From a virus (taxonomy: Duplodnaviria > Caudoviricetes), in IMG/VR virus record IMGVR_UViG_3300032327_000128, positions 1 to 60,601 of that record: DNA of 60,601 nt; one strand, written 5' to 3'. Of the stretch, positions 10,347-39,600 are shown one piece after another. Below the pieces are notes generated by a model. The model saw nothing but the letters and a program-made list of their open reading frames with translations, was not told the DNA's origin and searched no databases. The stretch's first letter is position 1. Each line of letters starts with the position of its first letter. A program made the position numbers and the translations under genes.

Positions 10347-10606
10347 GGTACCATTGACGGGGGGTGTTTCCTACGTGCGGGCCAGATGGATATCGGCCAG
10401 AAAAAATAGGGGGTGGGGGGTTGTGGTTTCGAATCCCTAAGGGGGGCCTTCCCTATGTCGAATGACAGGGTTTTTTAAAAACGCAAAACTGAATGTGCAA
10501 AATAGTATGTATACAGGCGCGCCACCACATAGGCCTATTTAGGGGGGTCGGGGGACGGTGGGAGCGCCGAATAATGCCCTTTCTGCCCCCTCCCCCCACT
10601 TTTTGT

Positions 10607-10634
10607 TTGACAAATAGATTAAATTGTAAGACAA
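10607..10634 (+). promoter_or_regulatory. Early promoter block 1
   Basis: TTGACA followed by GATTAAATTGTAAGACAA, an 18-mer repeated exactly at 11608-11625. Confidence 0.5.
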
Positions 10635-10676
10635 CAAGGACGTCAACAACGACACAACACACACAAGGAATTAAAC

Positions 10677-10895
10677 ATGAGCATGATGTTTCTAGCTAAC
10701 GTAGCACGCACGACATCGGAGAAGAGCGTCAACTTCTACACGCCATACGAACATGTCGTCGTGGATTATCCCAGCAAGGCGCAGCCTAACTACATGGTCT
10801 GGTCATACGACCACAGCGATGTCGCAGTAGCTAAGGACTTCGCCAAGGCGATGGATACCGCAGCCCGCTGGCTCAAGCTAGCCGAACCAGCCTAA
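10677..10895 (+). CDS. Early hypothetical protein (cassette 1)
   Basis: 72 aa, AAGGA RBS; ends in the 61-bp repeat. Confidence 0.7.
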   Translation: MSMMFLANVARTTSEKSVNFYTPYEHVVVDYPSKAQPNYMVWSYDHSDVAVAKDFAKAMDTAARWLKLAEPA

Positions 10896-10944
10896 CCCAA
10901 CGGGGGAGCGCAAGCTCCCCCAACCTAACCGGAGAATGAATATG
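10884..10944 (+). repeat. 61-bp direct repeat, copy 1 (stop + GNRA hairpin + RBS + start)
   Basis: Identical to 11143-11203. Confidence 0.95.
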
Positions 10945-11154
10945 CTTATCGCAAACGACAACGATGATACCTGCTACATACTGTTCTTTGATAACGAGGA
11001 TGACAACGCCACAGCAACGCACATCGAAGGCCCGTTCCCCTCATTCAAGGCCGCAGTTGATTACGGCATAACAGCATTCAACTGGGCGAAAGAGAACGGA
11101 GTTGGTTGGGTTGCAACTGAAATCGTATCAGCCTCAGAGTTTGAACCAGCCTAA
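10936..11154 (+). CDS. Early acidic hypothetical protein (cassette 2)
   Basis: 72 aa, flanked by the two 61-bp repeats. Confidence 0.7.
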   Translation: MNMLIANDNDDTCYILFFDNEDDNATATHIEGPFPSFKAAVDYGITAFNWAKENGVGWVATEIVSASEFEPA

Positions 11155-11203
11155 CCCAACGGGGGAGCGCAAGCTCCCCCAACCTAACCGGAGAATGAAT
11201 ATG
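11143..11203 (+). repeat. 61-bp direct repeat, copy 2
   Basis: Identical to 10884-10944. Confidence 0.95.
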
Positions 11204-11467: not shown

Positions 11468-11597
11468 GGCGAGACGGGGAGGCGAGAGCCTCCCCCAACG
11501 TCCACCGCTGCGTGATAGTAATTCCCTGCGGACAGCCACTTGCTATGCGTAGCGGACAGCTCAAAACGTCTAACAAGGTTAGAAAACACGATTTTTC

Positions 11598-11625
11598 TTG
11601 ACTTTATGATTAAATTGTAAGACAA
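11598..11625 (+). promoter_or_regulatory. Early promoter block 2
   Basis: TTGACT followed by the shared 18-mer GATTAAATTGTAAGACAA and a CA-rich leader like block 1. Confidence 0.5.
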
Positions 11626-11675
11626 AGAAGGGGTCAGCGGGACACCCCGACGACACTCACACACAAAGAAGGAAA

Positions 11676-12185
11676 ATGAGTATTATGGTTACTAAAGTAA
11701 AAGCACAGGCCACGCCTGTATCGAAGGCCCGCGCTGCTTATATGGCGTCGACCGCTTCCACCTACGGCGCGCTCCGCAAGTATTCGGAGACGTTGACCGC
11801 CACCCTTGGCGAGAAGTGGTGGCTGACCCCGATGAAGGGGCCGCTCACCGGCAACTTGGCTGCGCTGCGGGAGGCAATCCGCAAGGAGAAGGCGGAAGTC
11901 AAGTTGCTGGCCGAGAAGAAGCAGAAGGTCAACCCGAAGTATAACATTTACAAGCCGTGGTCCGACGTTCTGGCCTATGTTGACGAAACCAAATCGAAGA
12001 AGGGTGCAGGTGCAAACGTGGCCCGCGAGATTCGGGAGCGCATCAAGGTTGAAGTGTCCAAGGTTTACAAGGCCGTCAAGGAACACGATGACGCGGACCT
12101 CGAGGATTTGGCGGATTGCAACTTCCACCTCGGCGCGGCGCTCAAGGCAATCGGTGTCGACCTCACCGAGATGAACAGCAAGTAA
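11676..12185 (+). CDS. Basic alpha-helical early protein
   Basis: 169 aa, Lys/Ala-rich, AAGGA RBS, followed by a double terminator. Confidence 0.75.
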   Translation: MSIMVTKVKAQATPVSKARAAYMASTASTYGALRKYSETLTATLGEKWWLTPMKGPLTGNLAALREAIRKEKAEVKLLAEKKQKVNPKYNIYKPWSDVLAYVDETKSKKGAGANVAREIRERIKVEVSKVYKAVKEHDDADLEDLADCNFHLGAALKAIGVDLTEMNSK

Positions 12186-12191
12186 AACGGG

Positions 12192-12252
12192 AGGGGGGCG
12201 CAAGCCCCCCTTTTTTGTCCGCAATCCTGCCCGCCTTTGGCGGGCTTTTTTT
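12192..12252 (+). terminator. Tandem rho-independent terminators
   Basis: GGGGGGC-GCAA-GCCCCCC-T6 and GCCCGCC-TTT-GGCGGGC-T7. Confidence 0.85.
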
Positions 12253-12356
12253 GTGTCCGGTCCGGCCATATCCCGTTCGCCTTGCACCTAGCTGAGCAGG
12301 CCTAAGAAAGTTAGGGGTCGTCGTGATAGTAAATTCGTGCGGACAGCCCCTCGCGT

Positions 12357-12815
12357 AGTAAGCGTAGCGGACCTAATGTAAGATTAATTCTGTTAATCTA
12401 CACAGTATACTTTGATGAACGACATTGTCTAACTTAGTTAGAGGTCATCATGACAGTAGGTTCGGGCGGACAGCCACCGCCTGCGTAAGAAAAGTTTGCT
12501 TTGTAAGAAAAACAGCCGCTTTGTAAGAATTACACCCACGCATTTCTGCGCTTTGTAAGGGTTGTAAGGTTTGTAAGGCATTTTTCTTACGAGTCTGAGA
12601 GAAGGAGCCTCCTCGCTTATGCGTAGGCAATGTCAGGAAATCCCTTATATATATATTTTTTTAACTTACTTTCTTACACTACAACCGATTTTCTTCCGGA
12701 GACTCGCAGGCTTCCGCCATTTTCTTTTGTAAGTTTTATGCTCCTCGTTTTCTTACAAATGGCCCTTTTTCCTTACATTACCCAACTTCTCTTACGCACC
12801 TAACTTTCTTACACC
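12357..12815. repeat. Iteron-like GTAAG/CTTAC array around an AT-rich core (candidate origin)
   Basis: About 16 pentamers in non-coding DNA, mostly GTAAG on the left and CTTAC on the right; TATATATATATTTTTTTAA near 12645-12664. Confidence 0.6.
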
Positions 12816-12839
12816 TCACCACCCCTGTGGCCACATCGT

Positions 12840-12868
12840 TTGACTTGAGCAGACTTTTGTGCTACATT
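12840..12868 (+). promoter_or_regulatory. Sigma70-like early promoter
   Basis: TTGACT-N17-TACATT with TGn; same architecture as the promoter at 15808. Confidence 0.7.
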
Positions 12869-12948
12869 AAAAAGAAAAAAGTGCGGGTAAGGCTTCAAGC
12901 CCATCCGCACCAAGTGACCAGACCTAACAAAGTTAGAAAGAGCAGACT

Positions 12949-13101
12949 ATGACATTCACGAACGACGACCTCATAAACTTACTACTCACTGCCAAGGAAG
13001 CACTTGAACTTGGCATAGCCGAGCAGCCCCGTGAATTTGACCACGTTGTTTTGCACCGCATCAATACTGTGATTCGCAGTCTGAAGGAGCAAGCAGCATG
13101 A
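12949..13101 (+). CDS. Small hypothetical protein (50 aa)
   Basis: MTFTNDDLINLLL...; stop overlaps the next ATG (ATGA). Confidence 0.6.
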   Translation: MTFTNDDLINLLLTAKEALELGIAEQPREFDHVVLHRINTVIRSLKEQAA

Positions 13102-13289
13102 AATGTGATTGCGGAACCCGCATCAATCCGAAACGCGTAGCCCTTGGCTACCAAACCTGTCCTGTGTGTGGGGACTTGGAGGCGAGGAAGGTAGTGCGGT
13201 GCGTAGCACCTCTTAACAAAAGCAACTACGTCCTCGTCTCCAACTTCACAGACCTCAAGCAGCTCAACCCCAAATACAACAACGCCTAA
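13098..13289 (+). CDS. Small zinc-finger protein
   Basis: CDCG...CPVC; APLNKSNY. Confidence 0.7.
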   Translation: MKCDCGTRINPKRVALGYQTCPVCGDLEARKVVRCVAPLNKSNYVLVSNFTDLKQLNPKYNNA

Positions 13290-13311
13290 CAAAGTGAGAA
13301 GGAAACGCAGT

Positions 13312-13521
13312 ATGGATTGGCAACCAATAGAAACAGCACCGAAGGACGGGACACACATCCTGCTATTCATCGAAGACCAAGCAGTCGAAGGATGGTGGGG
13401 CGAATGGAGTAACTGGAAAACAGCATTACTCTCAAGCCACGGCTGCGGCTGCTGCGCAGACGACAACGAAGAACCAACCCATTGGGCGGTGTTAGACACA
13501 CCGAAGAAGGAGCAAGCATAA
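13312..13521 (+). CDS. DUF551-like phage protein
   Basis: WQPIETAPKDG...PTHW motif. Confidence 0.75.
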   Translation: MDWQPIETAPKDGTHILLFIEDQAVEGWWGEWSNWKTALLSSHGCGCCADDNEEPTHWAVLDTPKKEQA

Positions 13522-13700
13522 TGAAATACGTTTACAAAGCAGCCCTACGGTTGTCCTACCTTATATCCGACCTAGCCGAGTTCATCGCGCAGCCCATTGC
13601 CGATTGCCTGTGGGACTTGGGTGGCAGCATCGAATACTGGGCACATGAAAAGCTAACTAAGTTAGAAGCCCACGACCTGCCAGAGCAGGAGCAACGCTAA
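13521..13700 (+). CDS. Hypothetical protein
   Basis: MKYVYK start with AGGAG RBS; coupled to neighbours. Confidence 0.6.
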   Translation: MKYVYKAALRLSYLISDLAEFIAQPIADCLWDLGGSIEYWAHEKLTKLEAHDLPEQEQR

Positions 13701-14110
13701 TGGGCTACCGTTCAGACGTTAAGATTGTGTTCTACCTAACCGAGGGGACAATCGACACACCACCCACCAAAGACAACCCGCTCATCTCGTTCCCCATGCT
13801 CAAGCTGTGGTTCGAGGAGACTTACCCAGTCGCAGAGGCCAAGGAGGATTGGGAGGCCAAGATTGAGTATGGCGACGACTACATCATGGTCAACTACTAC
13901 GATGTGAAGTGGTATCCAAGCTACGAACATCCAGCGTCCATCGAGCGTGTCTTCGAGTTATTCAGCGCAGCGTTCAGCAGTGACGGGCGCAACCATCGTG
14001 CGCAATACGAAATGGTGCGTATCGGTGAGGAAGACCCTGACATCGAGAGGGAGAGCAGCGCCTATGCCGACCACCGCATCAGCGTCGAGCGCGGCATGAT
14101 ATTTGAATGA
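13700..14110 (+). CDS. Conserved phage hypothetical protein
   Basis: MGYRSDV...DVKWY...RIGEE motifs. Confidence 0.7.
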   Translation: MGYRSDVKIVFYLTEGTIDTPPTKDNPLISFPMLKLWFEETYPVAEAKEDWEAKIEYGDDYIMVNYYDVKWYPSYEHPASIERVFELFSAAFSSDGRNHRAQYEMVRIGEEDPDIERESSAYADHRISVERGMIFE

Positions 14111-14120
14111 GGATAAGGAG

Positions 14121-14267
14121 ATGAACGAATACGATAACAACTACCCACCATGCGTCCATTGCGGCGAGGGATGTGACCCAATGGCGGCAACGCCGATACA
14201 GTGGCAGTGCAATGACTGCGGGCTGTGGAACGATAAACCAGAAGAACCAACTACCCAACAGACCTAA
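14121..14267 (+). CDS. Small zinc-ribbon protein (48 aa)
   Basis: CVHC...CNDC; not in the ORF track. Confidence 0.55.
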   Translation: MNEYDNNYPPCVHCGEGCDPMAATPIQWQCNDCGLWNDKPEEPTTQQT

Positions 14268-14283
14268 CAAAGTGAGATATAAA

Positions 14284-14547
14284 ATGGCTATAGACCTAAC
14301 CAAGAAGCAAGACATCAAGCTAAGCACCAAGCTACAAGCAGCCTTACTGCTACGCAAGTATGACCAGTTACGTAAGCAACTGCGCGAGACCGAGCATGAA
14401 CTAGGCAAGGCCGTGACGGAATACGCCAGAGAGACTGGCCGCTGGGCACTATCAAAAGACCACTTCCGCAGCGAACTTGAGCGCGAAGAAAACACCCGCC
14501 TCGAACAAGCAGCCGAGCGCAATGACTGGGAGAAGGCACATGCCTAG
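14284..14547 (+). CDS. Coiled-coil hypothetical protein
   Basis: Likely start MAIDLTKK. Confidence 0.6.
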   Translation: MAIDLTKKQDIKLSTKLQAALLLRKYDQLRKQLRETEHELGKAVTEYARETGRWALSKDHFRSELEREENTRLEQAAERNDWEKAHA

Positions 14548-14635
14548 CATCATACACGCAGCCGCAGAAATACTGTTCATATCCGGCGGCATCTTTGCCG
14601 CTTGGGCAGTCCACGCAATCATCAAGGAGAAGTAA
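14540..14635 (+). CDS. Small single-TM peptide (31 aa)
   Basis: MPSIIHAAAEILFISGGIFAAWAVHAIIKEK, GGAG RBS. Confidence 0.45.
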   Translation: MPSIIHAAAEILFISGGIFAAWAVHAIIKEK

Positions 14636-14636
14636 A

Positions 14637-14783
14637 GTGAGCAAGCTAACCAAAGACCGCAACTACTACCGTATGTTGACGGATACAGAACTGGTCGCCC
14701 TGACTAGGGACAGCAGCAAGATAACCGAACTTGAGAAAGTGCTGGCCGAGCGCCTCAAATCCGCACTTGGACTTCGCGTCTAA
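14637..14783 (+). CDS. Small hypothetical protein
   Basis: GTG start after AGGAG; YRMLTDTELV...LAERL. Confidence 0.55.
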   Translation: MSKLTKDRNYYRMLTDTELVALTRDSSKITELEKVLAERLKSALGLRV

Positions 14784-14828
14784 CCGAGCAGAACAAACAG
14801 ACCTAACAAAGTTAGAAGGAAACAGATT

Positions 14829-15779
14829 ATGTCATGGAACAATTCATATCGCACATGGGGCTTCCCAACGATGAGCACCTACGACCAAGCGGCGTATCAC
14901 GAAGCGCAGGTCAAGCCCATCAGGGGCGACAAGAACGGCACGAAGCCGCTGGGTGACCGCAAGAAGAAGTATATCAACATCCGCAAGGAGGAGGGAACTT
15001 CCGACATCATCTGCCGTATCGGCAGCACAGACGTAGTGCGCTACAGGCCCAATGGGGATGTTGTAGTAAACATAGGCGGCTACACATCAGCGACAACAAA
15101 TGATTTCCTTGGGCAGTTGCTTCACATGGACGTGCGCACCTTCGACAGCAAGTCATGGGTCAAGTGCTTCTACCAGAGCAGCCCGATGGAGAAAGCCGTG
15201 AGCGGCGAGTTTGTGCTACCGAACGACACGGACTCTGTATTCCGCATGGACGCAATCACGCGCCAGTGGGTGACGCTCGACGTAATCCCTGCCTACACGC
15301 ACAAGGTAAACCGTGAGAAGTCTAACTTAGTTAGGAAGTCTTACACAACCTTCACGCGCTACCTACGCAATATGGTCAAGCTGCGCACCGAGATAACCGA
15401 GAAGCGGCACTGGACGGGCGACATCGTGGTCGAGCGGGTTGTTACTATCAGCAACGAGGAATTGGCAAACTTGGGCATCAAGACAGGCTACCGAGAACGC
15501 CTATCGTTCAAACCGCACAGCAACGGCTTAGCGCAGAACGTGCGGGGCATGATGATAAGTGATGACCCAGAGCAACACTACCAAGCCTTTGTGCAAATCA
15601 TACATGGCGCATCCGGCTACAGCTACATGCCGCAAAGGGGTATCGCAGTATACGCAGACGCAATCGGGGATTTCTACAACAAGCTACTGTTGTTCATACA
15701 CAAGAACGATGTGCTGGAGAAAACGGTAAGCACAAGCGATTCAGCTAAGCGCGACCCATACGGTGCATGGTTCAAGTGA
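14829..15779 (+). CDS. Early hypothetical protein (316 aa)
   Basis: Long ORF with AAGGA RBS. Confidence 0.75.
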   Translation: MSWNNSYRTWGFPTMSTYDQAAYHEAQVKPIRGDKNGTKPLGDRKKKYINIRKEEGTSDIICRIGSTDVVRYRPNGDVVVNIGGYTSATTNDFLGQLLHMDVRTFDSKSWVKCFYQSSPMEKAVSGEFVLPNDTDSVFRMDAITRQWVTLDVIPAYTHKVNREKSNLVRKSYTTFTRYLRNMVKLRTEITEKRHWTGDIVVERVVTISNEELANLGIKTGYRERLSFKPHSNGLAQNVRGMMISDDPEQHYQAFVQIIHGASGYSYMPQRGIAVYADAIGDFYNKLLLFIHKNDVLEKTVSTSDSAKRDPYGAWFK

Positions 15780-15807
15780 AGAGCCACCACAGGCCCGACC
15801 ACATCGG

Positions 15808-15836
15808 TTGACTTGGCCAGTATATTGTGCTATAAA
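15808..15836 (+). promoter_or_regulatory. Sigma70-like early promoter
   Basis: TTGACT-N17-TATAAA with TGn; preceded by CCACATCG and followed by an A-tract, as at 12840. Confidence 0.7.
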
Positions 15837-15870
15837 TAAAAGAAAAAACAGCGGAAAACCGCCAACTTAA

Positions 15871-15905
15871 ACCTAACCAACCTAACCAACCTAACCAAAC
15901 CTAAC
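15871..15905 (+). repeat. Tandem CCTAACCAA repeats (palindrome half-sites)
   Basis: (cctaaccaa)x3 running into the full palindrome at 15901. Confidence 0.8.
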
Positions 15906-15931
15906 AAAGTTAGAAACACGGAGCAGTTATT

Positions 15932-16999
15932 ATGTCTATTGATTTTGGTTCAAACATCAGCCTCGACGAAGCAGCCAGCCTCATCGTCTCCATCCCCGAC
16001 AACATCTTCCTACTCGAAGGTGAACCCGGCATCGGTAAGTCCTCCATCATGAAGGCGCTCAAGGCCAAGCTGGGTGATGGCTATGCCTATGCTTACTTTG
16101 ACTGTGCGCAGAAAGACCTTGGCGACATTGCCATGCCAGCCCCAAACCGCGAGTTACGGGTAACAGAGTATTTCCCCAACGCAGCCCTCCAGTTGCAGAC
16201 GGGCAAGCCAGTGGTCATCATGCTCGACGAGTTTGCCAAGGCTCCGCCACCTGTGCAGAACATGCTTCACCCGTTGCTCGAAGAACACAATCGCCGCTTG
16301 GGTGACGTTGCCTTGACCGATGGTTCCATCGTGTTCCTCACATCGAACCTATCAACCGATGGCGTGGGCGATGTCATCAAGGGGCATACTCTCAACCGCG
16401 TGACCAAGGTGCGCGTGGCCAAACCAGACAGCGACCAGTGGCTTGGCTGGGCGGTGAACAACAACATCGACCCTGTTGTCATGGCGTGGGTAAAGCAGTT
16501 CCCGCAAGCACTGTCGTCATACACCGAGGGTGGGCAGGGTGATAACCCATACATCTACAATCCCAAGGCTATGCAGAAGTCCTACGTCTCGCCCCGTTCT
16601 TTGTCGCGCAGTTCTAACATTGTTAGCAAGCGGGAGCATATCTCATCCAATGCTCTTACTGCTGCTCTGTCAGGCACAATCGGGGAAGCGGCAGCTCGTG
16701 ATATGCAAGCCTTCATCGCCTACCAAGACCAGCTACCGACATGGGACAGCATCATAGCCAGCCCTAAGTCTGCTGCGCTACCCACATCGGCTGGGGCATG
16801 TGCGGTGCTTATCTTCGGTGCAATCGCCAAGGTGACTAAGGAAACCATGACCCCGCTCATGGCGTATCTCGAACGGTTCGAACCAGAGTGGCAAGCGACC
16901 TTTGCTATCAACATCGCCAAGAACCCAAGCAAGCAGAGCATTGCCTTCACCTCATCGGCCTTTGGTAACTGGATGCAGGAAAACGAAGACCTGCTGTGA
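15932..16999 (+). CDS. AAA+ ATPase (MoxR/AAA_5-like)
   Basis: GEPGIGKS Walker A, MLDE Walker B, TSN, SPRS. Confidence 0.9.
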   Translation: MSIDFGSNISLDEAASLIVSIPDNIFLLEGEPGIGKSSIMKALKAKLGDGYAYAYFDCAQKDLGDIAMPAPNRELRVTEYFPNAALQLQTGKPVVIMLDEFAKAPPPVQNMLHPLLEEHNRRLGDVALTDGSIVFLTSNLSTDGVGDVIKGHTLNRVTKVRVAKPDSDQWLGWAVNNNIDPVVMAWVKQFPQALSSYTEGGQGDNPYIYNPKAMQKSYVSPRSLSRSSNIVSKREHISSNALTAALSGTIGEAAARDMQAFIAYQDQLPTWDSIIASPKSAALPTSAGACAVLIFGAIAKVTKETMTPLMAYLERFEPEWQATFAINIAKNPSKQSIAFTSSAFGNWMQENEDLL

Positions 17000-17265
17000 G
17001 TATCGACATACTCGCAGTGAAGCCGTGGGGGAGAGCATCCGGTAACGATGCCTCCCTCAAGCGATACTCAGTTTACTACAAGCGGGAAGGACGTATGTGG
17101 CGCAGCCTCATCGACGCAATCGACGAGATAGCTGCGTGGCGTAAGTTCCATGACGTAGTGGACCACCATACCAACCAAAACCTAACTACTTGTCTATCAG
17201 AGCAGGAGCAAGAATATCATGGATTTACAGAAAGCAGAGCGCAAGCTGAAGAAGGTCAAGATTGA
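16996..17265 (+). CDS. Hypothetical protein
   Basis: 89 aa between the AAA and VWA genes, GTGA coupling. Confidence 0.5.
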   Translation: MSIDILAVKPWGRASGNDASLKRYSVYYKREGRMWRSLIDAIDEIAAWRKFHDVVDHHTNQNLTTCLSEQEQEYHGFTESRAQAEEGQD

Positions 17266-18424
17266 CTTGATGCGCAACCCCAAGTTCGCGTTGTGGTCAG
17301 GCATCATGATGGTCGGCAAGACCAGCGTGGTCGAGGGCATACCTACGGCTTGCACCAATGGCCGCGACGAGATGTATGGCTTGGAGTTCATAACAAAGTT
17401 AGACCACAAGACCCTTGGCTTTGTCATACTACACGAGAACCTACACAAAGCGTTCCGCCACCTGACCACATGGGCCAAGCTATACAAGGAAGACCCCAAG
17501 CTGGCGAACATGGCTTGTGACTACGTCATCAACCTGATGCTTGTGGATATTGACGTAGGCGAAACTGTCATAGCGTTTCCCCGGCACGAGGATGGTTCGC
17601 GGATGGGCCTGTATGACCCACGCTTCAAAGGTATGCACACCAAGCAAGTCTTCGACATACTGAAGCAGGAGAAGGAAGAAGGCGGCGAAGGTGAAGGCGG
17701 CGAAGGCTTTGACGAACATGACTGGGAAGGCGCAGCCGAGATAAGCGGCGAGGAGAAGAAGGAACTCGAACGCGAGATAGACCAAGCGTTGCGGCAGGGT
17801 ATCATCACTGACCAAAAGGTGAACGGCGCAGGGGGAGGCGGACTAAGCCGCGAACTGGGCGAACTGTTGCAGCCGCAGATAGACTGGCGCGAGGCGTTGC
17901 GTGAATTTGTATCGTCGTTCTGCAATGCCAAGGACACATCGTCATGGCGCAGGGTCAATCGCCGTATGCTCGCACAAGATGTGTATATGCCTAGCCTAGT
18001 AGGTGAGAAGGTAGGCCACATCGTTGTCGGTATCGACACATCTGGGTCAATCGGTGTGCAGGAACTCAACACGTTCCTGTCCGAGGTCAAGTCTATCGTT
18101 GAGGACGTTCACCCTGATGCGCTCGACCTTATCTATTGGGACGGGGCCGTGGCTGCGCATGAGGTCTACGACATGGCAACGATGTCTAACCTTGTTAGCT
18201 CTACTAAACCAATGGGAGGCGGTGGAACCGACCCGACCTGCATGATGCGCTACCTTAAAGAGAAGAACATCAAGCCAGAGTGCATCATCCAACTGACAGA
18301 CGGATACATCGGCAACTGGGGCGACGAGTGGGAAGCACCAATCCTGTGGGTCATCACCGAGAGCAACTACAACAGCAACAAGATTGTCTCGCCTGTCGGC
18401 AAGACTGTTCACATCAAGGGGTAA
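17219..18424 (+). CDS. Metallopeptidase-VWA protein (DUF2201-like)
   Basis: TACTNG, HENLH (HExxH), NMACDYVIN; C-terminal VWA DTSGS, GGGTD, LTDG. Confidence 0.85.
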   Translation: MDLQKAERKLKKVKIDLMRNPKFALWSGIMMVGKTSVVEGIPTACTNGRDEMYGLEFITKLDHKTLGFVILHENLHKAFRHLTTWAKLYKEDPKLANMACDYVINLMLVDIDVGETVIAFPRHEDGSRMGLYDPRFKGMHTKQVFDILKQEKEEGGEGEGGEGFDEHDWEGAAEISGEEKKELEREIDQALRQGIITDQKVNGAGGGGLSRELGELLQPQIDWREALREFVSSFCNAKDTSSWRRVNRRMLAQDVYMPSLVGEKVGHIVVGIDTSGSIGVQELNTFLSEVKSIVEDVHPDALDLIYWDGAVAAHEVYDMATMSNLVSSTKPMGGGGTDPTCMMRYLKEKNIKPECIIQLTDGYIGNWGDEWEAPILWVITESNYNSNKIVSPVGKTVHIKG

Positions 18425-18428
18425 GCAG

Positions 18429-18674
18429 ATGACTAAAGCAATCATACGTTACGGTTACGACAGCTATGTGGTGGAGGCAGAGGATGCACTGCGCATACAT
18501 GAAATCCTAGCCAAGGCTGAACATTACCATAGGAAATACCGCTCAACAGAGGAGGGTGGCACTTCTTATTATGTCTGGGAGCAGGACATGAACAGTGACA
18601 TGCGCGACATTACGCTGATGCCCGATGGCCTCTACCGCATGGCCAAGTTGGCTGGCAAACCCGAAGATAAATAA
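18429..18674 (+). CDS. Hypothetical protein
   Basis: Likely start MTKAII; YRMAKLAGKP end. Confidence 0.65.
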   Translation: MTKAIIRYGYDSYVVEAEDALRIHEILAKAEHYHRKYRSTEEGGTSYYVWEQDMNSDMRDITLMPDGLYRMAKLAGKPEDK

Positions 18675-18734
18675 AAACACGAGTCAGTAGGTCACACCTA
18701 ACTAAGTTACACCTATTCAAGAAGGAGCAAGCAT

Positions 18735-19586
18735 ATGAGTATTAGTTCTTCATCGGTTCTTGTCGAACTGAACATCTCCGTCTGGACGGCTAACAAGCTG
18801 GACAAGGACGCGACCAACAAACTGACTGCTGACAATAGAGCAGACGCAAACGCAGCGCAGGTGCGCAAGAACCTGATGGCTGGCACTTCGTTACGGAAGG
18901 ACATAGCGGACTTTGCTGCTGGCTGTCGTATGTGGCACAACACACGAACGCTACCTTGGTCTGACCGTGGCCCTCGCCTGTTACCCACAAGTCTGTTTCT
19001 CGACTACAAGGCAGAAGCCAACACGCGGCGCGATGCGTTCATGCAGATGAAGGACAAGTTTCGCATGGAATATCCGAGGCTGCTGGCCACACGGATACTA
19101 TCAATGGGCGACCTACATAACCCTGATGACTACCCGCATGTTGACGAGGTGATGGGCAAGTTTGACTTCCGCCTTGTGTTCTCTCCCGTTCCAGAGTCGG
19201 GCGACTTCCGCTTAGACATACCAAAGCAGGACATGGACGAGATACGTAAGGAATACGATACTAACTTTGTTACACGTATCGAGGAAGCCATGCGGTCCCC
19301 ATGGGAGAAGCTGCACACTATGTTGTCTGGCATGAGCGCCAAGCTGACCGATAGCGATGACGAGACTAAGAAGCGGTGGCACGACACGTTCATTACCAAT
19401 GCGCAAGACATGTGCGGGATGCTGACCCACCTAAACATTACGGGTGACCCCAAGCTGGAAGCTGCGCGGCGGCAACTGGAACAGGCGCTAATCAACGTCG
19501 ATATTGACGACATCAAAGAGGAAGTGGGTGTTCGCGTAGACCTAAAGCAAAAGGTCGATGACATCCTCAAGGGTTATGACTGGTAA
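18735..19586 (+). CDS. DUF3150-like protein
   Basis: VELNISVWTANKLD, TLPWSDRG motifs; typical neighbour of AAA/VWA pairs. Confidence 0.6.
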   Translation: MSISSSSVLVELNISVWTANKLDKDATNKLTADNRADANAAQVRKNLMAGTSLRKDIADFAAGCRMWHNTRTLPWSDRGPRLLPTSLFLDYKAEANTRRDAFMQMKDKFRMEYPRLLATRILSMGDLHNPDDYPHVDEVMGKFDFRLVFSPVPESGDFRLDIPKQDMDEIRKEYDTNFVTRIEEAMRSPWEKLHTMLSGMSAKLTDSDDETKKRWHDTFITNAQDMCGMLTHLNITGDPKLEAARRQLEQALINVDIDDIKEEVGVRVDLKQKVDDILKGYDW

Positions 19587-19598
19587 AGGAAGACTAAC

Positions 19599-20510
19599 AT
19601 GACAATGAATTACGACGGCTACACATATACCGAACTCGATGGATACAAGAACGTATACAGGCGGGAATACAAGGCACAGAACAACCCGTATCAAGGGCCA
19701 GCGGTGCTTGCACCTAAGCTTGCACCCTTTGTGGATGCGATACTGGCACAGCGCCCCAAGTGGAAGTTTGTGGCTAGGCAGCGGGCGGGGACGGTTCTCC
19801 AAGACGACGGAACCAACACCCCTGCGTTTGGCACTCTTCAGGTCTACACAGAGAATGACGAGATACTGGGAGAACTTGATACCACCTACACCTACCGTGG
19901 TGGCGAGAGCCAGCTTACTTACACCTACGACAACGAGAGGCTGAGTGACAAGAGGCAGCGTGGGTCTTGGTCGAAGAGCACAAAGCTGGATAAGGCAGTC
20001 AAGGATGTGCTCAAGAACTTCCGCCCGAAGAACACTAACGAAATTGTGCGGGAGCGTATGAGCCTTGCGGGTAGCGTGGTAGGGCAAACAGCGGCTGAAG
20101 CGCAAAAGAAGTTTATGAACCCATACTCCAAGCTAAACCAGCAGATGACTAACTTTGTTATGTATAACTGGGCTACGCTATCTCCGATGTTCACGAAGGC
20201 GGGTCTTGAGTTTGACCCCGAACTTCCAGAACTATACGCGGCTGCTATGAAGGCCAAGGAGATGAAGGAGTCGTTCGCTCCCGATGGCGGCGTAACCATA
20301 ATAGTGCGACCTAGTGATTATCTTGTAGTGCGAAACACTGGCGTAGACGATAAATACGATGTACAGATTAAAGCACCAGAGGAACTGCCAGCCGAGGTGC
20401 GCCGCAAGCTGGGTATACTCAAGCTGACGGAACTTAGGCAGTACGTCCCCGACATGGGCGTGCATTGCGCGAAAAATACATACTTTATTACTGGGAAGGA
20501 CATGATGTGA
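19599..20510 (+). CDS. Early hypothetical protein (303 aa)
   Basis: Long ORF with AAGGA RBS. Confidence 0.75.
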   Translation: MTMNYDGYTYTELDGYKNVYRREYKAQNNPYQGPAVLAPKLAPFVDAILAQRPKWKFVARQRAGTVLQDDGTNTPAFGTLQVYTENDEILGELDTTYTYRGGESQLTYTYDNERLSDKRQRGSWSKSTKLDKAVKDVLKNFRPKNTNEIVRERMSLAGSVVGQTAAEAQKKFMNPYSKLNQQMTNFVMYNWATLSPMFTKAGLEFDPELPELYAAAMKAKEMKESFAPDGGVTIIVRPSDYLVVRNTGVDDKYDVQIKAPEELPAEVRRKLGILKLTELRQYVPDMGVHCAKNTYFITGKDMM

Positions 20511-20692
20511 TTGAAGAAACTAAACGATACCGAGGGCAGCGTGGGTTGGGCAAGCGCCCCGCCATGAGCCTTGCAAACCTGCGGCTGCGGACGGACATCC
20601 TCGACTACTATAAGACGTTCCCAAGCTACACGGCTAAGATGCGTGAAGTCCTAACGGAGTATGCAGAAGCCGAATCGGCGGACTACAAATAG
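20507..20692 (+). CDS. BrnA/DUF4415-like ribbon-helix-helix DNA-binding protein
   Basis: RGLGKRP...NLRLRTDILDYYK...YTAKMREVL pattern; GTG overlaps the upstream stop. Confidence 0.6.
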   Translation: MIEETKRYRGQRGLGKRPAMSLANLRLRTDILDYYKTFPSYTAKMREVLTEYAEAESADYK

Positions 20693-20720
20693 ACTAGTAA
20701 CTCCTAACTAGGTTAGAACT

Positions 20721-20746
20721 GACCGCCCTTGTGGCGGTCTTTTTTT
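20721..20746 (+). terminator. Rho-independent terminator ending the early region
   Basis: GACCGCC-CTTGT-GGCGGTC-T7. Confidence 0.85.
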
Positions 20747-30295: not shown

Positions 30296-30529
30296 ATGAG
30301 TTACGGCTACAGCATTAAGCTGGTTGAAGCCAATCAACAGGCTGACGAGGGACACTTGGGTGTGCAGCTTGGGAGGAAGTGCATTGAGCATGGAATCTCG
30401 GTGAGCAAAGCTGCCAACGAACTGGGTGCTACTCGTCAGACTGTTTACAACTGGTTCTGCGGGGGTAGTGTCCCGCAGGGCGAGTTCATTGGGCTGATCC
30501 AAAAATACATCGCTCAACTGCCTAATTGA
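30296..30529 (+). CDS. Helix-turn-helix protein
   Basis: SVSKAANELGATRQTVYNWF. Confidence 0.8.
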   Translation: MSYGYSIKLVEANQQADEGHLGVQLGRKCIEHGISVSKAANELGATRQTVYNWFCGGSVPQGEFIGLIQKYIAQLPN

Positions 30530-33692: not shown

Positions 33693-36600
33693 TTAGCGGT
33701 TCTTTTGCAGCAAGCTGCGTACGTATGGATCAAAGTCCTTCGATACGCGTAGACCCTCCATAGACCCAGCACGATCCCTATCGCGGGTCTTAAGGCTGTC
33801 TTGCCAGTTTTCGGGGTATATCGGGGTAATGTGGGCGGTGCTGTCGTTCCACTCATAGATTTTATCCCAGAGTTTGTTGACGTTCTTCTCGCCCTCCTCA
33901 ACGCTGATACGGTTAAGGTCGACGTCCCGATACACTTTTTCCAGCTTATCTAGGTACTCCGAGCGTTCCTTCTCAATCTTAATGACCGTCTTCTTGGCGA
34001 GGATATTACTTTTCTGGATGTCAGACACATCGGTACGACCAAAGCCAATACTCTGCCCAACAAGCACACCCCATGTGTAATCCTCCACCGGAGCGACAAC
34101 ATCCTGCGTATTAGGCGTGATATACCCTTCAGACCCAAGCCGCTTCGCCATAAGTGCGTTACGCAACGGTGCAGGCGCAAGGTTTTCAGCAGCCCTCCAC
34201 CCTTCACCCTTAGCTGCATAGTCCGCGCCGCGAACTAGGTTGCGCACCACTGAGCCTGTCGCACCGAACGCTAAGGTATATGCCAAGGACCGTAAGGCTT
34301 CCTCGTTGCTATCAACCGGCGTGTCGTCACGGAAGAACAACCCATCAAGGCCGACCGATGAGCCGATGTTCATGTTTGTAACAGCAGAGACAGGACCCAT
34401 CTTAACCGCACGCGTAAGTAGTTTTGCCTGTTCGTCGTCAAGACCCAAGTCGTTAGCTAGGTCGCTGTCAGGGCCAAAGTACTCAGGTAAAAACTTCTCA
34501 CGGAACCACAAATCAAGATTACGTGCTGTAAGTGGATTGTTATCATCATCGTCTTCGGCATCGCCAAGGCCAGCCGCTGCAAGAAGTGAGGTCATAAGCC
34601 CCATCATGAAGCTGTAACCGGGCATATTTACACTACCGGCAATCATCCATGTCATACCGAGGGTACCGAAGAACTGCTTAGCCGCAACCTTACGCTCTGC
34701 ATTGGGGAGTAGTGTCACTGTGTTTAAAAAACTACGGGTAAGGAACGACGCAATCTGGATAGGGAACGAGTAGAACTGTAGCGCAACGCGGCCAATTGGC
34801 CCCTTCATAGCGCGAGGCTTACTGCTTTCAGCGTAGTCGAACATAGTTTCGAGCGTCAGGTCAGCAGCAGTATCCGCAGCAATCTCCATGGCGGTCTTAG
34901 GGTCCATGCCATCTTTGATGCGCTTAGCGTAATCTAACTCGAACGCCGACATATACGCGATTTCACGTGAAATGCGTTCCGCATGGTGAATACCACCAGC
35001 GAAGAAATCAAAGACCCACTTACCCATTTTTGCAGGACGCCCTTGGAACTGCGCACTTGGTCCGGCTTTTCGCTCCAGTACGTCACCAGTAAAGGTAGAA
35101 TCCACAATGGCGCGCTTGCGTCCATACTCCCAAGCAAACTTTAACGCTTTGCCTAGTTCAGGGTCTTTGTTGTTGTTGATGTATTTGCTGTCACCCATGG
35201 TGGGTTGGCCCCAGTTGGTAACAAGGGTGCCGGTTTCATCTACCTTAGCTGTACCAAACTTATTACCTAAGGTTGCGATATACCGCGCAGCCACAGCCGC
35301 AGTCTGCACCGTACCATAACGTGCGCCGAGAGCTGGCATTGCCACGGTAGGAAGCTGGAAGAACTGTGCTATCACAGATTTGATGGACGTCAGTAGGTAG
35401 AAGAACGTCGCCTTATTCGCCAAACGTGCCATCGTGTCGAGCGAACTCGTATTCGGGCTGAAGGTTTCAGCTACGCGGATAGCCATCTCGTCAATAAACG
35501 GTTGGAGTTGATCGCGGTTCGGGTTTCCAGCCATGAGGCCATATGCCTCACCGAGGGTCTGGCGGATTTTTGATGAGTACTGCAAGTGTGTTAGGCGGTT
35601 AGCCGTCGACATCTGGGAGTCGACATACGCACGTAGCGTATCCGCCGAGAAACCGGCAACACCTTCGCGGTGTTGATATCGCTCAAGGTTAGAACCCTTA
35701 GGGAGCGATGCAGCATAAAGCTGGAAGATCATATCCTTAATGGCCCGGACATCGCCCATGCCACCCTTGTCGATTTCTAGCAGTACATTCTTAAGGACGT
35801 CAGAAGGTTCAGCACGCAAGAAATCAGCTTCTAAGCCATCAATATCTTGGCCGAAGTTAAAGACCTTTTCGTCGGCCTTGATTTCTGAGGCACTGCGGGT
35901 ATCGCCCGCATCTTGCAGCTTTTTGATACCTTCTTTGATAGCTTGCTGGTAAGCCGTCCCGTTGTTGTACCGTTTTACATCGCGGTTCTTACCCTTACCG
36001 ACGCGTACCCAATAATCCCCTGTACGGAACAAAGTAGCATAAGGGGCGTTCTTCTTGGCTGCTTCGTACAGCTTATCGAGTAGGTCAACAGTTTGCTGGA
36101 TACGATCCGCAGGCAGGCCAGACTTACGCACGCTGGATACCTGAGCGTTATATTCATTCTCAAACGAAGTCTTGTAGCCACCCATTACCATATCATAGAT
36201 TAGCTGCCCTTCACCATTGCCCATCTCTGGGGCGGCAAGCGCTTCGCGCATATCGTATATGTATTTGATTTGGTTTTTGCGGTTACCCAAGGCATCTTTA
36301 CCCGCACCGCTCTTAACCAGTTCAGCAAGCGTGTTATCCGCAGCCATGGCTGCTGCAAGTGACGGGTGACGCGACTCCACTCCTAATAGGGTAGAACCGT
36401 TAATCAAATTAGCCAGTAGCTCAGCGCCTTCGCTGTATTTGGCAGCGAACTTCTCGTAGCGTTTAGCGTTATAAGCAAGGTCCTTAAGCATCCCGTTACG
36501 GTAGCCGTCCATCCTGCCGAGAAGCTCGTTGATGCGGTTAAGTTTGCGCGCAACAGGCGGTGACAGCTTGTTGATTATGCGGATGAGGTCCCGGCTGTAC

Positions 36601-39600
36601 GTAAGGTAGCCCAGAACAAACCGACGCCGCTTGTCTGACATATCTTTCCACGCGGAGTCCAGAACATCAAGCTTGCCCTTAATACTCCGTGACTTGAAAA
36701 ACATAGTCCAAGTATCGGTATTGTTTTGAGCAGCGTCTTGGCTGGATGCTAAATTTCTTTCAAGACGCCGTACCCCAGCCATTTGCCGTTGGTTTACCTT
36801 AGGCGCAGCCGCAGGTTTAGCTTTGCCCTTAGCTTTGCTAGCCATGTACTTGTTGATGATCTCAACGTCGGCATCGTCGTAGATTACGTAGTTAAATGAC
36901 GGCCTTATCCGGTACGGGGACCGTGAATTGCCATCTAGATACTTAGTACCGCGCACACCGGCATCAAGCAGCGCTAGGGAAGCATCTTTAGGCGAACGGT
37001 ACTCGCGGGCAAGTATGCGATAGGCATCTTCACCATCGCTTGGTGTTGTCCGCTCCATTTTGCTGCGCCTAACCATCAACTTTGTAATTTTGCTGGCCAA
37101 CGGTTTTGCTTGGTCAAGGAGCGCTTGCGCTTGGGCTAGCGTTCTTTGGCTTTCCTCACCATACTGTTTATTCTCGGCTAAATATTCCAGACGAGAAGAT
37201 TCTTCCATCAGGGGATAATATTCTCCCCGCAGCGCTTCTATCTCTGCGTCTATAGCCTCTAACTCGCTAACTCCGTCTATATCAAGTCCGAGTTTGGTAA
37301 ATGCTGCCTTCACTATATCTGACTGTTTGGAAATAGGTTCGTCCCATAATAGGAACTGATTATCCTCAGGGGTTAACCTAACTTCATATAGTTTGCCGCC
37401 TTGAATGACTTTAGCGCCAGCCTCTATCAAAAGCTGTGCAACGGCTACTTCGCGCCTCAGACGCGCAACATTACGCTCAACTAATTTAATCGTTTCCGAG
37501 TCTGACTCTCTATCAAGGTAATCAAGATCGTCTTTAATCATGTCGTTAGTGGTTTCAATATACACCTCTAACTCTTCACCCCTTGGTAGATGCCCAATCG
37601 AACGCTCGATGTTTTTCAAAGCCTGCCCATACGGAGTAACTTTAGGATCAAGGTTCTCCATTGCCCATGTAAGGACGTCTTTGCCATTTACGGTAATCTT
37701 GTGCTTGGACAACGCCTTCCTATAGTGTTCTGCAATTCCCCGTTTGTCTGCGAAGTACAGACCCCAACCATAGACCTGCGCACCTTCACCACTGCCGATT
37801 TCATTGGAATCGAACTTATCAAAGTCGTGCGGGCCACCATGCCAGCCATTGACCATGTAGCGCAGGCCTTTGATGATGGTGCTTTCGCGGTTGCCGTCGA
37901 TGACTTGGTCGTGTGCCATAGCCAGAATGGAACGCACTTCGGCGTCACTATAGTCCAGCTTCAAACCAATGCGGCGACCGAAGTCCTTGATGACGGCAGA
38001 AATCTTAGCCCAGACAGACGCATCTACGCGGCCAGCTTCTGACTCCTCCGCAAGCACTTCTTCCAATGCACGTAAGTTAGGGTTGCTGTCGTTAGCGTAG
38101 ACACCGGGATTATCAAAACTCCACTGGTCAGCCTGCTCACGCAGCTTCTTGCTACCCTTATAAAGCTGGGCAAGTACTGCGTCCAAGCGGGTGTTGAAAA
38201 GCGCACGCAAGCCAAGGTGCCCAAGTGCCTCATGGTAGACAGCCGAGCTAGCTTCTTCAAACGTGTCAATGTTACTGGCGACAAAATAAATTGTGCCATC
38301 CGGAGCCACAAAAGCAGGGACGCGTTCCATGCCATCACGCGTAACAGCCCTGCGCAGCGTATCCGGAAGCTCAGCAATCGTACCAATAACCTTGATGCCA
38401 ATCTTAGCACGCCAGTTCTTTGTGAGGTCCTTGATGTGCTCTATAAGGTCAGTAGCAGCCATACCTTCAGCAGCTTTACCACTGCGGCTAGCTTGATATC
38501 TTTGCTTCTTTTCGTGACGTTCCCTAGCGGCTTTAAGCTCGGCATCGACTTCATCAATCGTACGGCGCTTTGTTTGAAGCTCAAACTTAACCCTATTGTA
38601 AGTTTTCTCGCTGATGAAAGGCTCAATTCCCATCTCAGGAACGCCCTCAAAAGCTTCTTCAATTTCCCCCATCACACGCTCAGCTTTGTCTTCAGGCGCT
38701 TCTTCGAGGTCTTCCTCGGGTGTGACCTCAACGGGTGCAGCTTCCCTTTGCTTACGAGCTTCGATTTCCCGCCGCAGGTTAGCCTCGGCTTCAGCATCCG
38801 CAGCCTCTTGTGCCGCTAGTTCTTGTCGCCGTGTATCAACATAACCTTGTACATTTTCCTGTGCAGGTGCAGCTTCGGGCTTAGGGCCATACAACCGCGT
38901 CATGCGCTCTTCGGCTACACGACGGTAGGATGCTGGGTCGGGTGTGCTTGTCCCCATGCCCCAATCAGAACCCAGTGCCCACGACACATCCGGGAATTTC
39001 TGTCCTGCAAACGCTTTTTCGAAGTTATCCCAAACCACAGCAGGTTCACGCCTGTCTGGGCGGTAGGGTGTAGGTGCAGGTTCTTCAGCCACAACTTCTT
39101 CAGCCGCCATCTCAGGCGCAGGAGCTAGTGCGACGTCTTCAGGTGTAATGTCTGCTACAGTAGGTGTAGGCTGAGCCGCTACTGATTCTTCTGTTAAGGG
39201 CATCGCCGCAGCAGATGTAGGCGCAGCCTCGGGGGCAATACCCAAGTCCTTAGCCGCAGTCTCTGCGATGCCCGGAACCACACTGGCAGGGTTAGGCTGC
39301 GTAGCAGCTTTGATAGCTTCAGTAACCGGAGCTTTAGCCGCCTCATCGAGGGTGGGTCCTGCTGGCGCTGCGGTAGGGGTCGGGGTCGGAGCGGTGAACG
39401 ACTTACCAGTAACCGCTTCCAGCGCAGCCACGGGGTCACCGTCATACTTACCATTTGCAAGCTGCTGCTTAGCCTGATTGAACTGCTTTTGGTCAATATC
39501 GTTGACGTAGATAGACTCGTTGTTAAGTATCGTGTCGTTCAGTAGCTGGGTAGCTGCGCTAACTCGTTCCTTCAGCGGCACCTTCTTGTTGGTAAGGGCT

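Follow-up and report, generated by a model that had tools for sequence, protein, structure and literature searches.

Repressor c of the temperate phage phiC31 binds many copies of a conserved inverted repeat, and KorB, a ParB-family cytidine triphosphate-dependent sliding clamp, recognizes short palindromes with a single central base that lie both at promoters and far away from them. In the parts of the published reports cited here, the KorB operators of plasmid RK2 serve one protein for the silencing of a whole domain (PMC11790492), and the stoperators of Cluster A mycobacteriophages are bound by one phage protein and stop elongating RNA polymerase (PMC9283540, PMC6550527). The Cluster O mycobacteriophages carry a 17-bp dyad repeat, TGTTCGG-N3-CCGAACA, of which Corndog has 34 copies, about one-third of them in genes and most with an AAA or TTT spacer; in the cited part of that report, the authors infer a dimeric DNA-binding protein and give the function of the repeat as unknown (PMC4351075). 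Here, we describe an array of 17 short palindromes of the form CTAAC-N3-GTTAG in the early region of the IMG/VR virus record IMGVR_UViG_3300032327_000128 (Duplodnaviria; Caudoviricetes). The stretch that was analyzed, referred to below as the window, is the complete record of 60,601 bases, so that all counts cover the entire phage genome.

The palindrome CTAAC-N3-GTTAG (CTAACNNNGTTAG) had 10 perfect matches in the genome against 0.08 expected, a number that was reached in none of 100 shuffles. When up to one mismatch was allowed, 17 sites were found (10 perfect and 7 with one mismatch), compared with 1.85 expected and 5 in the richest shuffle. An earlier note, made from the sequence alone, had listed these 17 sites, and all were recovered where it had placed them. 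It had also seen no perfect copy in the other ~51 kb, and our scan of the whole 60.6-kb genome detected none outside positions 11570 to 20716, either perfect or with one mismatch. The central base, which the note described as always A or T, was A in 11 sites and T in 6, and central triplets occurred in both orientations (AAA in seven sites versus TTT in two; TTA and TAA in two each). One site-to-site distance, the short pair already set apart in the note, measured 127 bp, and the others ranged from 362 to 888 bp. The coefficient of variation of the spacing was 0.32, compared with a simulated mean of 0.92, and none of 20,000 random placements gave a value as low; likewise, the largest gap of 888 bp was well below the simulated mean of 1929 bp (P = 0.0002 under random placement).

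The array tiles two adjacent plus-strand transcription units: that of p169, a protein of 169 amino acids (aa), followed by a long operon consisting of small genes, a 316-aa gene, the gene for a MoxR-type AAA protein, a DUF2201 metallopeptidase/VWA gene, a DUF3150-like gene, a 303-aa gene, and a 61-aa gene, in that order. The AAA, VWA, and DUF3150-like labels used in the earlier note hold: Pfam assigned the AAA gene to AAA_5 and the VWA gene to DUF2201_N/DUF2201, while the DUF3150 label comes solely from neighbor clusters in the ESM Atlas, in which 12 to 41% of the members carry PF11348. Ten of the 17 sites are located between a stop codon and the next ribosome-binding site, or abut it, at 7 to 34 nucleotides (nt) before the start codon, and 2 of these intercistronic sites supply the stop codon of the upstream gene through their own TAA. 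Six sites lie clearly within the five long genes, five of them in the reading frame xCT AAC NNN GTT AGx. The note had counted seven sites well inside coding sequences; the seventh, at 13653, falls only within the 3' end of a doubtful 59-aa open reading frame (ORF).

The closest precedents for this arrangement appear to be the Cluster O dyad repeats and the Cluster A stoperators. As described in the cited part of the Cluster O report, those repeats are perfect inverted repeats with a 3-bp spacer that occur in tens of copies, about one-third in coding sequence and the rest in short intergenic gaps, and their density is highest in a single nonstructural operon of a phage without obvious signs of a temperate lifestyle. 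The window matches this description with 17 copies, an A or T at the center of the spacer, and 6 or 7 of the 17 sites in coding sequence. However, Cluster O repeats have a 7-N3-7 structure and another sequence and are present in 34 or more copies throughout the genomes of actinobacterial siphophages, whereas the palindromes described here are of the 5-N3-5 type, occupy a single 9-kb block, and are evenly spaced in some lineages; moreover, their sequence and spacer covary across a large family of freshwater podophages, and codon-level selection on them is documented below. The stoperators, according to the cited parts of those papers, share with the array the many 13-bp copies along operons, mostly in short gaps between genes, and by this analogy a stoperator-like block to elongation is the functional model that we favor for the internal copies. 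Stoperators differ in being asymmetric, oriented with transcription, and bound by a monomeric immunity repressor, and they occupy both genome arms of temperate phages. Here, the sites are palindromes, their central triplets occur in both orientations, and all 17 lie within 9.1 of 60.6 kb; in addition, Pfam and PHROG scans of the window ORFs found no integrase, no immunity or other repressor, and no ParB family, although a weak or novel repressor could escape such scans.

The cited part of the KorB paper describes features that resemble the array in their palindromic form, their single central base, their location at and far from promoters, and the long range of silencing, but KorB is a ParB-family clamp acting on plasmid RK2, and the window belongs to a lytic phage. 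We searched all six frames of the genome for the ParB N-terminal domain PF02195 and obtained 0 matches at E <= 1, with the control positive in 11 of 14 reference genomes, and we rejected membership in the ParB/KorB type on this basis. Since no ParB-type protein is present, the comparison drawn in the earlier note with matS/MatP and SlmA/Noc, like that with ParB, stands as one of logic only. PhiC31 likewise has many inverted-repeat copies in its early region that are read by a single repressor, but it is temperate, and the repressor c family PF25746 had no match in this genome.

To place the array in its family, 44 related viral loci were retrieved with the AAA protein. Thirty-five of them carried at least six copies of a TAAC-N3-GTTA, TAAC-N4-GTTA, or TCCTA-N3-TAGGA core, compared with an expectation of ~0.2 per locus. 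The suggestion of the earlier note that relatives might each have a tiling palindrome of their own proved correct, as the form of the site was specific to the clade. Clade A, to which the window belongs, has CTAAC-N3-GTTAG; clade B has CTAACAWTGTTAG, often extended to 15 to 17 bp; clade C has CTAACA-N2-TGTTAG; clade D has GTAAC-N4-GTTAC or ATAACCATGGTTAT; clade E has a looser CTTAAC-N4-GTTAAG; and clade G, in which the AAA protein is merely 33% identical, has TTCCTACCGTAGGAA. The TAAC core is constant across clades A to F, and relatives close enough to have AAA proteins of 55 to 69% identity can differ in carrying an N3 or an N4 spacer. All four complete clade A genomes showed the same confinement as the window: their 12, 12, 13, and 9 perfect sites each fell within one block of 6 to 10 kb, and the late and replication arms contained 0 copies. 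The quasi-even spacing claimed by the note was significant in the window and in three related loci (L039, L037, and L038); it was not significant in five other lineages (L040, L041, L029, L046, and L048). Some palindromes of clades B and C follow an AAGGAG and contain, at their center, an ATG in frame with the annotated downstream start (L037 at 5726 and 6575; L035 at 11069), and the true start codon may thus lie within the palindrome at these positions.

A variant of the array was also present in the cultured phage Pag-Yong1, whose AAA, VWA, and DUF3150-like genes are 22 to 29% identical to those of the window. Its early strand carries about 22 GGTTCAG-S-CTGAACC-like sites, mostly between a stop codon and a ribosome-binding site, and the long genes are not filled with sites in either Pag-Yong1 or clade G. 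The Pag-Yong1 record (OL906435.1; L050/L059) has a G+C content of 68.9%, an unusual value for a phage whose listed source is Planktothrix, and the three 65,014-bp records of this set are filed under differing cyanobacterial hosts. No enriched palindrome was detected in the first 50 kb of DSL-LC04 (61.5 kb) or of HTVC027P (57.6 kb), both of which share the structural module and lack the AAA-DUF3150-VWA block, and no palindrome array was found in CB1, an N4-like phage that carries homologues of AAA and VWA. A term search of two papers on HTVC023P-type phages (PMC9599517, PMC12753301) returned neither "palindrom" nor "promoter," and none of the 10 papers listed, of 112 found for Pag-Yong1, MinM2, and Pra-JY27, concerned these phages; these searches yielded no description of the array.

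The earlier note proposed that codon choice maintains the intragenic sites, and codon alignments of the long genes bore this out. In the AAA gene, 11 of the 14 clade A and B sequences retained the codons TCT AAC ATT GTT AGS (Ser-Asn-Ile-Val-Ser/Arg); two of the remaining sequences differed solely in the spacer codon, and one had a single mismatch. Clade C encodes Ser-Asn-Ile-Val-Lys at that place by other codons and has no site there. About 220 nt upstream, clades D and E have GTA ACN ACN GTT ACG with wobble variation only in the spacer, and clade C has CTA ACA AAA GTT ACC, in which a Val-to-Leu change creates the clade's own half-site. Sites recurred in homologous alignment columns throughout: in the 316-aa gene (7 of 7 sequences in clade A and 4 of 5 in clade B), in the downstream column of the AAA gene (7 of 8 in clade A and 7 of 8 in clade B) and its upstream column (2 of 4 in clade C, 3 of 4 in clade D, 15 of 15 in clade E, and 2 of 2 in clade F), in the first column of the VWA gene (7 of 7 in clade A) and its second column (7 of 7 in clade A and 6 of 8 in clade B), in the DUF3150-like gene (6 of 7 in clade A), in the 303-aa gene (4 of 4 in subclade A1), and in the polymerase gene (12 of 13 in clade E). 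Where two sequences from clades A and B shared an amino acid, they also shared the codon in 74% of cases at site codons and in 56% elsewhere; the 303-aa gene was an exception, with 42% at site codons. These alignments indicate that the intragenic copies are held by selection on nucleotides, in which fixed synonymous codons and even amino acid changes preserve the half-site of the clade. The results support a real, selected, and phage-lineage-specific array that is confined to the early block; neither a similar motif density in the late and replication arms nor a lack of conservation at the intragenic sites, which the note had named as refuting outcomes, was observed.

Within the window, the array begins with site 1 (11570..11582; perfect, CTAACAAGGTTAG), which lies 103 nt past the stop codon of an 88-aa gene and 14 nt upstream of a promoter-like TTGACT. 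The latter belongs to a plus-strand element, TTGACT...ATTAAATTGTAAGAC, at 11592..11636, which may mark the start of the p169 unit. This element is 73% identical to one at 10601-10645; both have the form TTGAC(A/T)-N7-ATTAAATTGTAAGAC, a CA-rich leader and the start of a gene come after each, and their -35 to -10 spacing is off the standard sigma-70 pattern. A scan for sigma-70-type promoters was uninformative (12 found versus 10.4 expected), and the promoter-like reading of the repeats, from which the promoters were assigned, is therefore tentative. The fast-evolving p169 gene (11676..12185, plus strand) is the first gene flanked by sites, and two terminator-like hairpins (12193..12245, plus strand) close its unit. 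Site 2 (12302..12314; one mismatch) follows in the noncoding control region past these terminators, with a conserved CGTGATAGTAA...GCGGACAGCC element 7 nt downstream. Site 3 (12429..12441; perfect) is followed by the same element, the two forming a 127-bp repeat unit, and a minus-strand promoter-like match overlaps its left arm. The element itself, which is 33 nt long and had no Rfam match, is present in three copies (11511-11557, 12322-12372, and 12449-12481); the first two are extended by a downstream GCGTAGCGGAC box, and the second and third begin 7 nt past a palindrome, in keeping with the 127-bp duplication.

Between sites 3 and 4, an iteron-like array extends from 12480 to 12830. It comprises five plus-strand copies of TTGTAAG at 12501-12577, another at 12727, and a minus-strand copy at 12752, and after the first run come inverted CTTAC(A) copies around an AT-rich center at ~12640-12665. 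Nine of the 12 genomic TTGTAAG copies fall in the region from 10.6 to 12.8 kb, and the array may represent a replication origin or the binding array of a second regulator.

The sites of the long operon begin with site 4 (12924..12936; perfect), 12 nt upstream of the ATG at 12949. The TAA of site 5 (13286..13298; one mismatch) is the stop codon of ORF 13098-13289, and the site lies 13 nt upstream of the ATG at 13312; similarly, the TAA of site 7 (14264..14276; one mismatch) terminates ORF 14121-14267 at 7 nt upstream of the ATG at 14284. Site 6 (13653..13665; perfect), the one within the 3' end of the doubtful ORF, is 34 nt upstream of the ATG at 13700, and site 8 (14803..14815; perfect) is intergenic, 13 nt upstream of the ATG at 14829. 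Site 9 (15322..15334; perfect) lies within the 316-aa gene (+493). Three tandem half-sites, CCTAACCAA, with a period of 9 to 10 bp (15872..15899, plus strand) run into site 10 (15901..15913; perfect), which is 18 nt upstream of the ATG of the AAA gene at 15932. Site 11 (16614..16626; perfect) lies within the AAA gene (+682), in the codons TCT AAC ATT GTT AGC. The DUF2201/VWA gene contains site 12 (17390..17402; one mismatch) at +171 and site 13 (18186..18198; perfect) at +967. Site 14 (18698..18710; one mismatch) is intergenic, 24 nt upstream of the ATG of the DUF3150-like gene at 18735, and is followed by site 15 (19261..19273; one mismatch) within that gene (+526) and site 16 (20149..20161; one mismatch) within the 303-aa gene (+550). 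Site 17 (20704..20716; perfect) is positioned 11 nt past the stop codon of the 61-aa ribbon-helix-helix gene and 4 nt before the stem of a strong intrinsic terminator, which closes the tiled operon with a 7-bp stem of six G-C pairs and one other, followed by a T run (20721..20739, plus strand).

The limits of the array track the boundaries of transcription units, as given by promoter-like elements and a terminator, and not distance. The earlier note had the palindromes mark the whole early block; they are indeed confined to it, but the first small plus-strand genes, at 10.5 to 11.5 kb, carry only lone half-sites and no full palindromes. Between these genes there is an exact 61-nt direct repeat (10884-10944 and 11143-11203) that contains a stop codon within CCTAACC, a GC hairpin with a GCAA loop, a second CCTAACC, a ribosome-binding site, and an ATG, so that the immediate-early genes have half-sites and a strong hairpin instead of the full palindrome. 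Lone CCTAAC half-sites in the window number 13 on the plus strand and 0 for the complement, several of them directly before a Shine-Dalgarno sequence. Most other loci showed this plus-strand excess weakly or not at all, clade G lacked it, and it is compatible with the C/A-rich composition of the coding strand; because the bias is strong in the window but not general, we treat it as mostly compositional.

The reading that we favor, although we give it slightly less than an even chance, is that the 17 palindromes form an operator array for a phage-encoded binder of double-stranded DNA, most likely for the timed shut-off of the delayed-early block. The extent of the block, from a repeated promoter-like element to a strong terminator, is counted in favor of this reading. 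One sequence-specific, 2-fold symmetric phage protein would read all 17 sites on double-stranded DNA, which would place the p169 unit and the long operon, from 12.3 to 20.7 kb, under common control. The copies near promoter-like elements (11570, 12302, and 12429) would control initiation, and the internal copies, between cistrons and within the five long genes, would stop or slow the host RNA polymerase or nucleate a cooperative repressive complex. If the binder were the 61-aa protein encoded by the operon's own last gene, delayed negative feedback would result; alternatively, a 77-aa protein of the replication operon could bring about a middle-phase shut-off of the early genes. Recognition on duplex DNA, a repressive effect, and the choice of binder are all inferences.

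The 61-aa protein (20507..20692, plus strand) is BrnA/DUF4415-like, and the start of its gene overlaps the stop codon of the 303-aa gene. The family occurs in clades A to D and in some of clade E; several homologues were named DUF4415 by JGI, and 9 of 20 aligned relatives weakly matched Pfam BrnA_antitoxin PF14384 (best E value, 0.0051). The stop codon of the gene has a palindrome within ~13 nt in 10 clade A and B loci. AlphaFold2 predicted helices at residues 29 to 35 and 41 to 60 after an extended segment in the monomer (predicted local distance difference test [pLDDT], 78), and in the homodimer model, residues 20 to 29 pair as an antiparallel strand or ribbon. The model reached an ipSAE of 0.44, compared with 0.00 for the best control, a mark that 20 of 30 solved homodimers and 1 of 23 monomers attained. 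At least 98% of the contacts were common to the runs, and the partner pLDDT was at least 66; the score may reflect likeness to solved ribbon-helix-helix dimers. The 303-aa gene (19599-20692 region), which overlaps the start of the 61-aa gene by 4 nt, is fast-evolving (57% identity within clade A and ~25% to other clades), and the two resemble a coupled pair with an antitoxin-type partner, but no BrnT-like toxin is present.

The second candidate, the 77-aa helix-turn-helix protein, is encoded outside the array (30296..30529, plus strand), just upstream of the DUF927 primase-helicase gene; of the 71 ORFs scanned, it alone had Pfam signals of the helix-turn-helix type. Nine genomes from clades A to F were examined, with the window among them, and the protein was found in eight; its recognition helix is almost invariant, in parallel with the invariant TAAC core. 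A minor candidate is p169, which is flanked by sites in clades A, B, and D. We examined the 61-aa and 77-aa proteins for covariation of putative binding residues with the motif and found no clear signal either way. An assignment of p169 to phiC31 repressor c or to DUF3102 was rejected, as the ESM Atlas score of 0.79 was at chance level and neither family matched the genome at E <= 10. The DUF3150-like protein, too, gained no support as the binder: its AlphaFold2 model had a pLDDT of 77, none of 124 Foldseek matches reached E <= 0.001, and the top-ranked ones were mostly short helical-bundle proteins. This protein (18735-19586) has 3135 relatives at E <= 0.001 in a 90%-clustered collection; no functional name is attached to any of the 120 that were listed.

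Several observations weigh against the operator reading or its candidate binders. The window's own 61-aa copy had no Pfam match, the best Foldseek hits of its model included ParD antitoxins but were nonsignificant (E value of about 6), and the presumed DNA-facing strand residues vary among phages that share the motif. The 61-aa gene was undetectable in two complete genomes (G005 and G001) that keep 10 to 11 core sites. The 77-aa gene is part of the replication module and would therefore be conserved among close relatives anyway, and a half-site spacing of 8 to 9 bp is short for typical helix-turn-helix dimers. Neither of these two candidates was found in the clade G contigs, which are only ~44% complete, or in Pag-Yong1, where p169 was not found either. 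In clade G, the central base on the coding strand was C in 22 of 23 sites and never G, an orientation bias that is not expected of a symmetric duplex site. The plus-strand bias of the half-sites, several of them before a Shine-Dalgarno sequence, hints at a strand-specific or RNA-level component, and many full sites tightly adjoin ribosome-binding sites. Finally, a classical repressor requires neither even spacing nor intragenic copies.

Some of these points would suit a signal in RNA, whereby an RNA-binding protein or endoribonuclease of the phage or the host, recognizing the motif shortly before ribosome-binding sites and within long cistrons, would repress translation or trigger the rapid decay of early mRNA in the manner of RegB/RegA, an explanation that we consider rather unlikely. 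It would account for the location of 10 of the 17 sites after a stop codon and before, or abutting, the following Shine-Dalgarno sequence, for the like placement in Pag-Yong1 and clade G, for the central ATG that can follow AAGGAG in clades B and C, for the single direction of transcription up to a bounding terminator, and for the strand asymmetry of both the clade G center and the half-sites of the window, although the latter is weak or lacking at most other loci and fits the composition of the coding strand. However, the stems are marginal. Folding with RNA parameters gave hairpin energies of -2.4 to -4.3 kcal/mol at perfect sites, and in 7 of the 17 sites the lowest-energy fold was not the hairpin, yet these imperfect sites are conserved nonetheless. 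The palindromes of clades B and G and of Pag-Yong1 are symmetric right up to the bases that flank one central nucleotide, and the symmetry spans 15 to 17 bp in several clades; bases that close to the center cannot pair in a hairpin and are useless to it, whereas they suit a dimer on duplex DNA. Clade E keeps only a core of 4+4 bases with no pairing beyond it (the fifth position is complementary in 5 of 12 sites of locus L021), which is too short for a structural stem. T7-like RNase III sites, for comparison, are long stable stems located between cistrons only, while the array has weak 5-bp stems and 6 or 7 copies in genes. The symmetry, the weak RNA stems, and the degenerate outer positions favor a protein that reads duplex DNA; the RNA hairpin is unlikely to be the recognized form, and the sites are probably recognized on double-stranded DNA by a 2-fold symmetric protein.

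Alternatively, the evenly spaced palindromes might nucleate or load a small phage protein by which the whole delayed-early operon is coated or bridged and silenced as a domain, with the operon's last gene as the timer; we hold this to be unlikely, though somewhat less so than an RNA signal. It would make for a phage form of domain silencing built on a ribbon-helix-helix or small helix-turn-helix protein and not on ParB or H-NS, with diverging specificities, common to the abundant freshwater and marine podophages that carry the AAA-DUF3150-VWA block. A structural array on duplex DNA that is not mainly aimed at transcription, with evenly spaced coating, bridging, or compaction points that might protect the first-entering DNA, pace genome entry, relieve supercoiling, or organize the DNA near the origin-like iterons, seems to us about as improbable as the RNA signal. 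The regular spacing in the window and in L039, L037, and L038 would fit such a role, as would the internal copy near the middle of each of the five long genes, the iteron-like array with its AT-rich center inside the block (12480-12830), and a 2503-aa polyvalent virion-type protein encoded by the phage. Regularity is absent in the five other lineages, however, the long genes are unfilled in Pag-Yong1 and clade G, no ParB-type domain was found, and the limits of the block coincide with promoter-like elements and a terminator; the record's terminal repeat may have arisen from overlap in the assembly and so does not fix the physical genome ends. Sites for a host transcription factor, which would tie early expression to host physiology and make the clade differences a matter of different hosts, are less probable still. 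The lack of a convincing phage binder common to all array-bearing lineages and the constancy of the TAAC core over clades A to F could be explained in this way, but the N3/N4 switch occurs among close relatives, and the half-sites change together with small phage lineages. That the sites are recombination linkers, conserved to promote the exchange or duplication of early gene cassettes between related phages, is very improbable. Thirteen bases are very short for homologous exchange, and the conserved intragenic copies under synonymous constraint would be left unexplained, even if most sites flank small variable genes and the gene content between them differs by clade while the sites persist; the cited part of the Cluster O report describes two deletions between its repeats (PMC4351075). 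Least credible of all are single-stranded hairpin promoters of the N4 type for a virion RNA polymerase. Their geometry fits (a stem of 5 to 7 bp, a 3-nt loop, and an A/T center), the AAA and VWA genes are common to N4-like phages at 22 to 30% identity, and the annotated N4-type promoters of CB1 are similar in form. We rejected this explanation because no RNA polymerase signal was detected and CB1 itself lacks the array: the 2503-aa protein did not match the solved N4 polymerase chains in the PDB, Pfam gave it only an ART domain, and only its C-terminal part matched DarB-like/PLxRFG proteins. Moreover, there are 17 copies, including some in the middle of genes, those abutting a ribosome-binding site leave no room for a leader, and the hairpin often is not the preferred fold.

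The genome that carries the array is podophage-like, with portal, terminase, and capsid genes that resemble those of the Planktothrix phages Pag-Yong1/MinM2, HTVC023P-type pelagiphages, and phage DSL-LC04 (portal identity, 40 to 44%). Its structural block is on the minus strand (1-10.2 kb and 33.7-60.6 kb) and includes the 2503-aa polyvalent protein (33693-41204), which has a weak ART-PolyVal match at residues 1121 to 1166 and a C-terminal third that is DarB-like/PLxRFG by PHROG and tblastn; residues 1 to 1100 had no match in Pfam, PHROGs, PDB sequences, or the phage collection. The two plus-strand blocks are the early block and a replication block encoding DNA polymerase A, a helicase, an exonuclease, and the DUF927 primase-helicase. 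No near-identical record was found in the phage collection, and no known RNA families or tRNAs were found in the window; 20 sequencing runs, mostly labeled as freshwater metagenomes and with no RNA run listed, contain part of the stretch as contigs. Two ORFs of the early block, 13098-13289 and 14121-14267, encode small proteins with paired Cys-x-x-Cys-type motifs. The first, which is conserved in 25 loci and had no profile hit, resembles a TraR/DksA-type zinc ribbon by eye; if it is of this type, the phage may also act on the secondary channel of the host RNA polymerase.

Dispersed operator-like repeats have been known from actinobacteriophages, where stoperators are understood and the Cluster O repeats have lacked an explanation since 2015. 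Repeats of this kind are now apparent in an unrelated and environmentally abundant phage lineage. New here, besides the lineage, are the strict confinement to one operon, the covarying specificities, and the documented codon-level selection. The covariation of the motif, the codon-held intragenic copies, and a cultured relative, Pag-Yong1, with an array of its own make the question testable. Should the binder be found, it would explain how operon timing is achieved in a lytic phage that lacks its own RNA polymerase, and it would provide a set of orthogonal protein-operator pairs.

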